From contig JAGBDC010000024.1 of assembly GCA_017937705.1 (NCBI GenBank), forward strand, positions 11,079 to 75,078: DNA of 64,000 nucleotides. The letters run 5' to 3'. Shown piece by piece: positions 20,852 through 22,991 of this stretch. The notes below the pieces were generated by a model. It searched no databases. It had not been told where the DNA came from and saw only the letters and a list, made by a program, of their open reading frames with translations. How positions within the stretch are numbered: the first letter of the stretch is position 1; the number at the start of each line of letters is the position of its first letter. The translations under genes were made by a program, and so were the position numbers. This DNA is from Alphaproteobacteria bacterium. Lineage in GTDB: Bacteria > Pseudomonadota > Alphaproteobacteria > RF32 > CAG-239.

Positions 20852-21190
20852 ATGCAATTTATTAAGAAAAATATCTGGACATTAGTGGCAATGATTTTTG
20901 TCGTTACTGTTGCTATGATTGGTGACGCTTGTGCAGATGACGTTATGGGTTTAGCGTTGACTAAAACACGTAACGTGTTTGAAAAAGTAAAATCAATCAT
21001 CTTTGTTCTAGGTGGATTTGGTTTGGTAGCCGTAGCTTTCTTGGCTATCTTTGGTAAAGTTAACTGGAAATGGTTTGCTGGTTTGGCTGTAGGTTTGGCT
21101 ATTTTGGCTGCTGCAAATGCTGTTGTTCAATACTCTGCAGGTGCAAATGCTGGTTTGAATGATACATTCCAACAAACATCAACCATGTAA
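20852..21190 (+). CDS. virB2: VirB2/TrbC-family T4SS pilin, paralogue 1
   Basis: 112 aa. A long signal peptide is followed by two hydrophobic helices (IIFVLGGFGLVAVAFLAIFGKVNWKWFAGLAVGLAILAAANAVVQY), as in VirB2 (PF04956). GGAG precedes the start. Confidence 0.75.
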   Translation: MQFIKKNIWTLVAMIFVVTVAMIGDACADDVMGLALTKTRNVFEKVKSIIFVLGGFGLVAVAFLAIFGKVNWKWFAGLAVGLAILAAANAVVQYSAGANAGLNDTFQQTSTM

Positions 21191-21273
21191 TTACTTAATA
21201 AAATCGGGGGAGCTGTCGCAGCTCGCAATAGCTCCCTCAAATTTCAACAAAAACAGGTAGGAAGGAAAAGAAA

Positions 21274-21612
21274 ATGTTGTACGTAAAATTAAAGAAAATA
21301 ATTTTATTGACATTGGTTGCGTTCATCGTTTCTTCAATTTTATTTGCAACCAATTCTTTTGCCGCAGATTCGGGTTTGTTTGCTGACTTGACAGCAAAAG
21401 GAAGAGAAATCTTTACCGGAATGCGGGAAATTATTTTTGCCGTTGCCGGTTTTGGTATAATTGCTATCGCTGTAGGCGGTTTCTTCGGTAATTTTAACTG
21501 GAAATGGTTGGGGGCCATCATTATTGGATTGATGGTAATTGCGCTAACTTCAGGTATTATTGAGTACATGGTTGGTTCTGATGTGCTCGATGTACAAGAT
21601 ACCTTAAAATAA
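21274..21612 (+). CDS. virB2: VirB2/TrbC-family T4SS pilin, paralogue 2
   Basis: 112 aa with the same architecture as paralogue 1, including the conserved FG-x-(V/F)NWKW motif (IIFAVAGFGIIAIAVGGFFGNFNWKWLGAIIIGLMVIALTSGIIEY). Confidence 0.75.
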   Translation: MLYVKLKKIILLTLVAFIVSSILFATNSFAADSGLFADLTAKGREIFTGMREIIFAVAGFGIIAIAVGGFFGNFNWKWLGAIIIGLMVIALTSGIIEYMVGSDVLDVQDTLK

Positions 21613-21626
21613 TAAAGGAGGGTGTT

Positions 21627-22991
21627 ATGATGAAGTTTTTGAAAAAAGGAAATAAACTCTCCATATTAGGGATTGTTTTATGTGCAGCGATGTTTGCTTC
21701 TGGTGTTGCTTTTGCTGAGGATACTAATTGGAATTATTGGCAAACAGGAAATTTACCTGGTGCTCTGTGGAGTGGTTCTGGTAGTGCTAATGATATGCCG
21801 GAAGGTTGGCATCCTCCAATGTCTCTTGAGTATGCTGAAGAGCTTAGAGCAAATGAAGCCAAAGCTGCGGCAGCAGGTTCTTCTAGTCCGTATAGCAAGT
21901 GTCAAGGCGGTAATATTTTTCAAACTTTAAGATGTATGATAGCTAGTGCTCTCAGAGATATAAGGAATATAGTATACGTTGTTGGCGGAATAGGTCTGAT
22001 TACCTTTACTTTTGCGGCCATTTTCGGAAAAATAAGTTTTAAGCATTTGGCTAATATCTGTTTCAGTTTGTTCTTGCTGTCGATGATGTCTCCTTTTGTT
22101 GCCTTCTTTTCAGGTAGTGAGACAGCTTTGGCTGAGCTTGAATATGGATTGTATCTATCGCCTGAGGATAGTGATGTAGAAGACTCCAATGTTACCGGTT
22201 CTTGTAAGGGTAGTAATTGTCCTTCTTCGTTAGGCGGAGGTGCTGGAGGAAGTTCATCTGGTAGTGGTCAAGCTCTTGTTCCGGGAGAAACTGGTTCGGA
22301 TGATGCCATTGATGGTGGTATGCTAGATGAAGTTGTTGTTACTGCAGAGGCTCCTAAACGTCCGGAATTAACAGGACTTGCAACAGTTCAAAATCCGAAA
22401 GCGACAGATTTGGCTATGCCGACTTTAACTTCAAACAATACAGAAATTGATACCCGTACCGGTTGGCAAAAGTTCAAAGATGGTATAAATAAAGTGGCAA
22501 CAGAAGGTAGAAAAGCATATAATACAGCTTCAACCATATATTCTGCAGCTAAAAATGTTCACGCCGCTGGAAAAAATACGGTTAATGCAATTAAAAACGC
22601 TGATAGTTTAGGTGATGTGTTGATGGCCGGAACTGTTGCTATGAATTCTGTACAGACTATTGCGGGCAATGTAACCATGGCAGCCGGAGCAGTTGGCGGA
22701 TATACCGATCAGAACATGTTGAATAATATCAATGATGAGATTGAACGTTTGAGACAAGACAGTCAAAATAATCCGGGTAATGCTGATGCAAACAATCAAA
22801 GAATTCAAGAATTGCAACAACAGGCCCGTGAAGGAACTGCTCAAGCTAAGACGGAAGATTTTCTGGGTGGTATAGTTAACGCAGCTGGTGAGGGCAATGA
22901 TGTTCTCAATACAGGTATAGATATTAATAATACCGTTAATGCTGGAGGTAGTTTGTTAAATGATATCTTTAGTGGTAATGGTTTTTATTAA
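21627..22991 (+). CDS. VirB2-domain protein with ~290-aa C-terminal extension
   Basis: 454 aa. A signal peptide and ~80 aa precede a VirB2-like two-helix module (IVYVVGGIGLITFTFAAIFGKISFKHLANICFSLFLLSMMSPFVAFF). A Gly/Ser linker and an Asn/Ala/Gly-rich C-terminal region follow. Confidence 0.55.
   Translation: MMKFLKKGNKLSILGIVLCAAMFASGVAFAEDTNWNYWQTGNLPGALWSGSGSANDMPEGWHPPMSLEYAEELRANEAKAAAAGSSSPYSKCQGGNIFQTLRCMIASALRDIRNIVYVVGGIGLITFTFAAIFGKISFKHLANICFSLFLLSMMSPFVAFFSGSETALAELEYGLYLSPEDSDVEDSNVTGSCKGSNCPSSLGGGAGGSSSGSGQALVPGETGSDDAIDGGMLDEVVVTAEAPKRPELTGLATVQNPKATDLAMPTLTSNNTEIDTRTGWQKFKDGINKVATEGRKAYNTASTIYSAAKNVHAAGKNTVNAIKNADSLGDVLMAGTVAMNSVQTIAGNVTMAAGAVGGYTDQNMLNNINDEIERLRQDSQNNPGNADANNQRIQELQQQAREGTAQAKTEDFLGGIVNAAGEGNDVLNTGIDINNTVNAGGSLLNDIFSGNGFY

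Follow-up and report, generated by a model that had tools for sequence, protein, structure and literature searches.

Type IV secretion system (T4SS) pilins are usually seen as small, uniform building blocks, with contact roles being given to VirB5 or to separate adhesins. In the T-pilus, the termini of VirB2 point outward; pilins also share a basic loop on the luminal side as a conserved feature (10.1101/2022.09.25.509369). A model of the R388 system has pentameric VirB2 layers added at the base, between VirB6 and VirB5, and places VirB5 on the first VirB2 layer (PMC9259494). Arrays of VirB2 genes as such are already known (PMC12102498). The present study concerns a window of 64,000 nucleotides (contig JAGBDC010000024.1, positions 11,079 to 75,078, forward strand) from a metagenome-assembled genome (MAG; 1.58 Mb, 99 % complete) of an uncultured gut alphaproteobacterium. 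Here, three VirB2-family genes head a chromosomal VirB-type type IV secretion operon. These open reading frames (ORFs), ORF1, ORF2 and ORF3, or virB2-A, -B and -C, all lie on the plus strand at the positions assigned to them by an earlier note made from the sequence alone. We find that they belong to a conserved trio, the third member of which joins a pilin module to a long and variable tail.

The two short paralogues, virB2-A (20852-21190) and virB2-B (21274-21612), each encode 112 residues and reach 33.3 and 30.9 bits, respectively, with Pfam PF04956 (TrbC/VirB2), both exceeding its curated cut-off of 27.9 bits; a whole-genome scan was concordant. The earlier note had read three VirB2-family genes in tandem here, with an FG-x-(V/F)NWKW loop in the two short ones, and we recovered IFGKVNWKW in A and FFGNFNWKW in B. 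Their paralogy was borne out, whereas the identity of about 40 % estimated by eye came down to 34 % over 71 residues. A signal peptide and two hydrophobic helices were found in all three proteins by hydropathy. virB2-A is probably the major pilin.

The third gene, virB2-C (21627-22991, plus strand, 454 residues), is preceded by a strong Shine-Dalgarno sequence, AGGAGG. A PF04956 check proposed for all three ORFs succeeded for the two short ones and failed for ORF3, which alone stays under the cut-off (12.9 bits, E 0.14), yet its homology emerges by other routes. Of 22 members of the ORF3 family, 18 score best with TrbC among the Pfam families, all of them below cut-off, with a best E of 4.9e-4. 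Residues 109-168 match ORF1 at E 1e-9 (BLASTP). Furthermore, a profile of the clade's short pilins aligns with the ORF3 family at an hhalign probability of 98.2 % (E 3.1e-14, 96 columns, ORF3 residues 7-165), the aligned part running from the signal peptide through helix 2. Because this profile-profile homology to the neighbouring short pilins is strong, we accept ORF3 as a VirB2 despite its low Pfam score; judged by homology, it is a VirB2-family protein with a pilin module related to the short pilins, and the two-helix module attributed to it earlier is confirmed. Its position in the VirB operon beside virB3 and virB4 holds here and in relatives. The hydrophobic segments of ORF3 span residues 11-29, 115-133 and 144-162, with no further membrane segment detected by hydropathy. 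After helix 2 follow 289 residues, so ORF3 is no small subunit of about 70-120 residues without extra domains; the long C-terminal extension, noted earlier as unusual for T-type pilins, is real.

Such an architecture could in principle be an artefact, two genes having been joined by an annotation error or a sequencing frameshift, for which the region near 22150-22250 had been suspected. No support for this was found in the window, where ORF3 is one uninterrupted frame, and since dozens of independent assemblies, from different hosts, show a single ORF with the same order of modules, ORF3 is not a frameshift fusion; the probability left to an artefact is negligible. Errors or pseudogenes do exist elsewhere. 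In one genome of the genus, a TGA lies within the ORF3 orthologue (G056:C19:25141-26145), and in a human-gut MAG the copy is truncated at 178 residues, with the tail continuing in another frame (L027:1768-2304). These interrupted orthologues are possible pseudogenes or sequencing errors, and tail loss may be ongoing.

The trio is conserved across the order. Matches occurred in 61 of 61 sampled genomes of the order, and each of the 36 species loci has the genes in the sequence short-short-long, upstream of virB3-virB4. The ORF3 family comprises 50 clusters at 90 % identity, all long, and the same gene neighbourhood was met in four further assemblies, down to 29 % identity. In a tree of the pilin modules, each paralogue group forms one side of a branch (support 92/84 for A, 98/94 for B and 98/93 for C), from which it follows that the triplication predates the sampled diversity. 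On this phylogenetic evidence, A, B and C are three distinct VirB2 types that form an old set, passed on vertically and with one-to-one orthologues, the orthologue of virB2-A being one-to-one in every relative examined. Relatives are 72-99 % identical to the window in VirB4, 53-98 % in B and 54-98 % in A. Within C, the corresponding values are 46-91 % for the hairpin, 20-86 % for the C-terminal domain and 23-74 % for the linker region. Conservation thus falls from VirB4 through B and A to the C hairpin and then the C domain, the linker usually being lowest. One species carries four VirB2-family genes (133, 126, 116 and 413 residues; L045:2695-5185) instead of three.

ORF3 is built of successive modules, all on the plus strand. 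A Sec-type signal peptide (residues 1-30, 21627-21716), hydrophobic at 11-29 and alignable with those of A and B, ends in a putative cleavage site, GVAFA/ED, that we place from its A-x-A motif. An N-terminal insert of the mature protein follows (residues 31-95, 21717-21911); in the alignment it occurs in the closest relatives only, namely the window protein, P0002 and P0003, and partly in P0006 and P0007. The VirB2 hairpin (residues 96-165, 21912-22121), delimited by BLASTP to ORF1 and by hydropathy, consists of a helix, the loop FGKISFKH and a second helix; many of its columns are at least 90 % conserved, and the core AAIFGKISFKHLANI is nearly invariant. Next comes a conserved junction, L-x-Y-G-x-Y-L-x-P, with a Cys loop, C193-KGSN-C198-P (22122-22226), where L171, Y173 and L177 are invariant and C193, C198 and P199 nearly so. 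Among the 43 proteins scanned, of which 41 are long paralogues, 40 have a C-x(3-6)-C motif at this same distance from the loop, and some distant relatives have an extra four-Cys motif. A DsbA-like gene is present in the genome; together with the conserved Cys pairs of the tail, it fits an oxidising compartment. FGKISFKH, L-x-Y-G-x-Y-L-x-P and C-x4-C-P provide an annotation signature for C-type proteins, which now have neither a name nor a Pfam domain.

Beyond the Cys loop lies a low-complexity linker rich in G, S, T and P (residues 201-267, 22227-22427), whose length and sequence vary freely in the alignment. It contains, at about residues 200-225, the (G/S)-rich stretch described before, and the broader segment around it (residues 176-267) is the region of 23-74 % identity given above. 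The remainder, from DTRTGWQKFKD onward (residues 268-454, 22428-22988), is predicted to be an all-helical domain. AlphaFold2 gave helices throughout the tail at low confidence, with a predicted local distance difference test score (pLDDT) of 43.5 when the whole protein was modelled and of 57.7 for the tail by itself (23-sequence alignment). The tail had no Pfam or NCBIfam assignment, no PDB match at E≤0.001 by Foldseek and nothing meaningful in a profile search of PDB sequences. By Foldseek it came closest, though without significance, to AhlC, a component of an alpha-pore-forming toxin, and HlyE was matched weakly by one family member. A tail-profile search of 1.84 billion representative proteins returned 38 matches at E≤1e-10, and nearly all the full-length, family-sized ones bear an N-terminal VirB2 hairpin. 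Weaker matches outside VirB2 fusions were amphipathic-helix repeat proteins (apolipoprotein, ApoLp-III, MCP), which we treated as compositional.

Two motifs within the trio deserve mention. Asp-Thr-(Phe/Leu) is invariant in the C-terminal tails of A and B in all aligned orthologues (21161-21169 and 21595-21603 in the window) and may be a processing or packing site. The C-terminus of ORF3, NDIFSGNGFY, loosely resembles it, and its terminal aromatic residue is conserved; we considered NDIF as an argument for a tail that was inserted and not appended, and dropped it, the motif being too short. Besides, the ORF3 tail shares a 35-residue helix-turn-helix motif, I-N/D-x-x-I-x-x-L-x-Q-D-S-x-x-N-P-x-N-A..., with an exported 402-residue protein of the operon (22722-22826, ORF3 residues 366-400; 28497-28601, residues 128-162 of the other protein; BLASTP E 1e-5). 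It is the sole part of the tail with a pLDDT above 90 and an insert in only some lineages of the family.

The tail varies widely among relatives. C-type proteins fall into three size classes, with the tail absent (120-142 residues), medium (316-470) or giant (660-1896). By hand count, about 39 of the 61 genomes have their best C-type match in an open frame of 300 residues or more, 7 in one of 170-250 residues and 15 in one of less than 160 residues. Genes of 120-142 residues were inspected in four other species, two of them in the window's own genus, and virB3 comes directly next in all four; that of the same-genus species G012 stops just past the Cys loop. In other genera, the C paralogue has 660, 1145, 1516, 1752 or 1896 residues. 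In these giant forms the hairpin is embedded behind a signal peptide and an N-terminal part of 300-770 residues rich in A, E, K and Q, with no Pfam domain found on searching; up to about 1,050 residues follow the hairpin and about 770 precede it. The tail is accessory, readily lost or changed.

Beyond the order, a sample of 250 genomes from the class yielded VirB2 ORFs that were short in all but two cases. The one inspected is a 428-residue protein from another alphaproteobacterial family (G137, L057:1955-3241; part of the record reads X/N). It has a signal peptide and a C-type-like hairpin with AIFGKLSFKW; its tail, made of acidic tandem repeats rich in D, P and T, is different. The neighbours of its gene are not T4SS genes but housekeeping-like ORFs, judged by eye to encode a polytopic membrane protein and a glycosyltransferase resembling LpxB.

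Signals between the genes bear on the relative amounts of the three proteins. Directly 3′ of virB2-A lies a GC-rich intercistronic hairpin with an 11-bp stem (21206-21238, plus strand), and the 87-nt intergenic RNA that contains it folds at -23 kcal/mol (z -3.4). Eight relatives also have a GC-rich hairpin of 10-16 bp at this position, the sequences being unrelated. It is a possible attenuator or mRNA stabiliser, and suggests that A transcripts are more abundant. B and C, separated by 14 nt, are probably a tightly coupled expression pair behind this hairpin. A strong intrinsic terminator with a 13-pair stem followed by a T-run (23005-23044, plus strand) closes the three-gene pilin unit. Matches in a promoter scan were no more frequent than in shuffled sequence, and we name no promoter.

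We propose, with moderate confidence, that C is a specialised, probably low-copy type of pilin that would bear an accessory outward appendage. Both termini of a membrane-inserted C would face the periplasm, leaving the tail periplasmic before assembly. Because VirB2 termini point outward in the solved T-pili, the tail would then lie outside any filament that C joins. C would enter the filament by its pilin module, together with A and B, as a specialised and probably low-copy subunit, and the tail would project outward as an accessory appendage that serves contact, spacing or anchoring. The most plausible place for C would be one end of the filament, either the tip-proximal first layer or the base: incorporated first, it would come to lie under the tip, and incorporated last, at the base. 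Several points weigh against this proposal. In it, pilus formation by the three proteins and the incorporation of C are both predictions. Tails of up to about 1900 residues would hardly fit through an outer-membrane channel, and a periplasmic or base site suits them better than the tip. Confidence in the structure models is low (pLDDT 43.5 and 57.7). ORF3 has a strong Shine-Dalgarno sequence, its low copy number being deduced only from the upstream hairpin. Finally, with no detectable VirB6 in this MAG, the system here might be incomplete.

A more far-reaching version, possible but unlikely, is that C-type VirB2 would be a modular, pilus-anchored display platform; its exchangeable, fast-evolving tail of helices, from 0 to more than 1,000 residues long according to species, would be the part that touches host or partner cells. 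The AhlC and HlyE matches are a cue that such a tail might be membrane-active. If true, this would be the first T4SS pilin bearing its own effector or adhesin domain.

The same data must be weighed against other roles for ORF3. The earlier note had offered a pilus-anchored display protein, a base or tip component and a cleaved precursor; these choices are narrowed in so far as the tail is a dispensable accessory, resembles no VirB5 and does not stand in for VirB6. Its hairpin might stay in the inner membrane as an anchor or docking module, for example at the pilin-binding sites of VirB6 or VirB3, the tail then being a periplasmic part of the machine. The giant forms, with A-, E-, K- and Q-rich extensions of hundreds of residues at both ends, seem too bulky for export and speak for such a scaffold, as does the enlargement of other machine parts (a 1440-residue VirB10, a 1470-residue repeat protein and a VirB9-SPOR fusion); in the R388 model, moreover, VirB2 binds VirB6 and VirB3 helices in the membrane (PMC9259494). 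We nevertheless consider a scaffold somewhat unlikely: the tail is lost even within a genus, hardly to be expected of a core structural part, its rate of evolution exceeds that of all the machine proteins compared, and the pilin module retains the basic luminal loop and full pilin-like features. A cut after helix 2, by analogy with the trimming of RP4 TrbC, would instead leave a pilin of normal size and set free a helical protein, either periplasmic or secreted. For P-type pilins, processing at the C-terminus is established and offers a precedent. Short C-type proteins of relatives end just past the Cys loop, marking a natural module boundary, and the flexible linker comes after it. However, the MAG appears to hold only one S26 peptidase, of the LepB type (the single PF10502 match, a 254-residue ORF), and no TraF-like maturation enzyme; beyond the Cys loop no conserved cleavage-like motif stands out; and the giant forms are extended on both sides of the hairpin. 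That the helical domain was found only fused to VirB2 among the 1.84 billion representatives further suggests that tethering is needed, and a cleaved precursor appears quite improbable.

The idea that the tail is a fused VirB5-like tip protein, or that ORF3 replaces VirB6, draws on the lack of any PF04610 (VirB6/TrbL) or PF07996 (VirB5) match in this nearly complete MAG, the latter down to E≤1 anywhere in the genome, and on the membrane anchor and large helical periplasmic part of ORF3. We consider it highly improbable. The VirB2-VirB5 fusion is rejected on the lack of PF07996, which was also not listed at E≤1 for the 22 family members (among the best 25 of 55 families), and of similarity between ORF3 and the protein at the VirB5 position (25916). 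The VirB6 substitute is rejected in view of relatives that have the same trio and separate VirB6 genes: 60 of 61 have one to five VirB6/TrbL matches each, mostly two to five (55 genomes over the Pfam cut-off), and in two same-genus relatives VirB6 genes lie on the same contig just past virB11. Moreover, ORF3 has two transmembrane helices and a signal peptide, against at least five helices for VirB6, and some species lack the tail altogether. The VirB6/TrbL copies of relatives are mostly in tandem and often large (430-1350 residues; same-genus examples G018:C8 and G012:C5, in L050, L051 and L056). Collinearity with the window stops exactly at the virB11 stop codon; past it (46437-47216), tgt comes next instead of VirB6. 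Since same-genus relatives have the VirB6 cluster just past virB11, where this synteny ends, the cluster is either missing from this assembly or bin or really lost in the strain.

The remaining neighbourhood is that of a T4SS. Downstream of the trio, the Pfam scan gave a weak VirB3 match at 23125 and a clear VirB4 at 23405; four exported, helical proteins without a family (25916-33247) and two VirB8 genes follow, and further on a VirB9 with a SPOR domain, a beta-flower repeat protein of 1470 residues, the 1440-residue VirB10 and VirB11. A type IVb pilus operon adjoins on the opposite strand, transcribed in the opposite direction, and a VirD4-like gene is present on another contig of the MAG. 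The hosts of the related records, all gut MAGs, are humans, mice, roe deer and rabbits; we take these MAGs, entered under the names 'Alphaproteobacteria bacterium' or 'uncultured Azospirillum sp.', to belong to the GTDB order RF32. Three records with the same T4SS locus, titled Bacteroidaceae (L014), Lactobacillaceae (L038) and Lachnospiraceae (L040) bacterium, are probably mislabelled or contaminated bins.

A search of the literature on RF32/CAG-239 T4SSs and VirB2 fusions gave nothing relevant, and no paper on such a tailed VirB2 in alphaproteobacteria was found. What this study adds is the three-way orthology, the finding that the tail is polymorphic for presence or absence, the conserved hairpin that follows A, and the rejection of the VirB5 and VirB6 readings. 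An order-wide, fixed trio with tails from zero to more than 1,000 residues is a natural experiment on the cargo size of the VirB2 module. It also bears on the placement of specialised pilins in a base-growing filament and on the use of chromosomal T4SSs by reduced-genome gut symbionts. The natural short, medium and giant C variants are ready-made test constructs.

Among known systems, the TrbC/VirB2 pilins (Agrobacterium VirB2, R388 TrwL and RP4 TrbC) resemble the trio in their long signal peptide, two hydrophobic helices and short basic loop, and the canonical VirB2 of type T mating pair formation (MPF-T) systems is likewise encoded directly upstream of virB3-virB4. Such a VirB2 has, however, about 70-120 residues with free or cyclised termini, whereas ORF3 adds 289 residues after the module and about 65 before it. 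The RP4 TrbC-type pilin has a dedicated TraF-like maturation peptidase, and none was found in this MAG. Several divergent tandem VirB2 genes also occur in Anaplasmataceae rvh, in Bartonella Trw (TrwL) and in Patescibacteria arrays (PMC12102498). The system described here has further rvh-like traits, namely a duplicated VirB8 and, in relatives, tandem large VirB6 paralogues. To our knowledge, amplified VirB2 arrays elsewhere consist of short pilins, often variable in number; in contrast, here there are exactly three fixed, anciently diverged types with one-to-one orthologues, one of them large-tailed.

Huge, poorly conserved extensions of a T4SS membrane component in a reduced-genome alphaproteobacterium are likewise seen in the extended VirB6 proteins of Rickettsiales. 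VirB6-4 of A. phagocytophilum is given as 4322 residues (PMC7648143); the core there is a polytopic VirB6, against the two-helix pilin of ORF3. VirB5 (TraC of pKM101 and TrwJ of R388; PF07996) is also exported, helical, fast-evolving and pilus-linked, and differs from ORF3 in showing no sequence or profile similarity to it and in having no pilin module. A possible, purely functional analogy is offered by the FimH and PapG tip adhesins of chaperone-usher pili and by type IV minor pilins, which combine a polymerisation module with a displayed domain in a low-copy subunit beside the major pilin. Their folds and assembly machines are unrelated to those considered here, and the tail of ORF3, in contrast, is predicted to be helical, with no recognisable binding domain.

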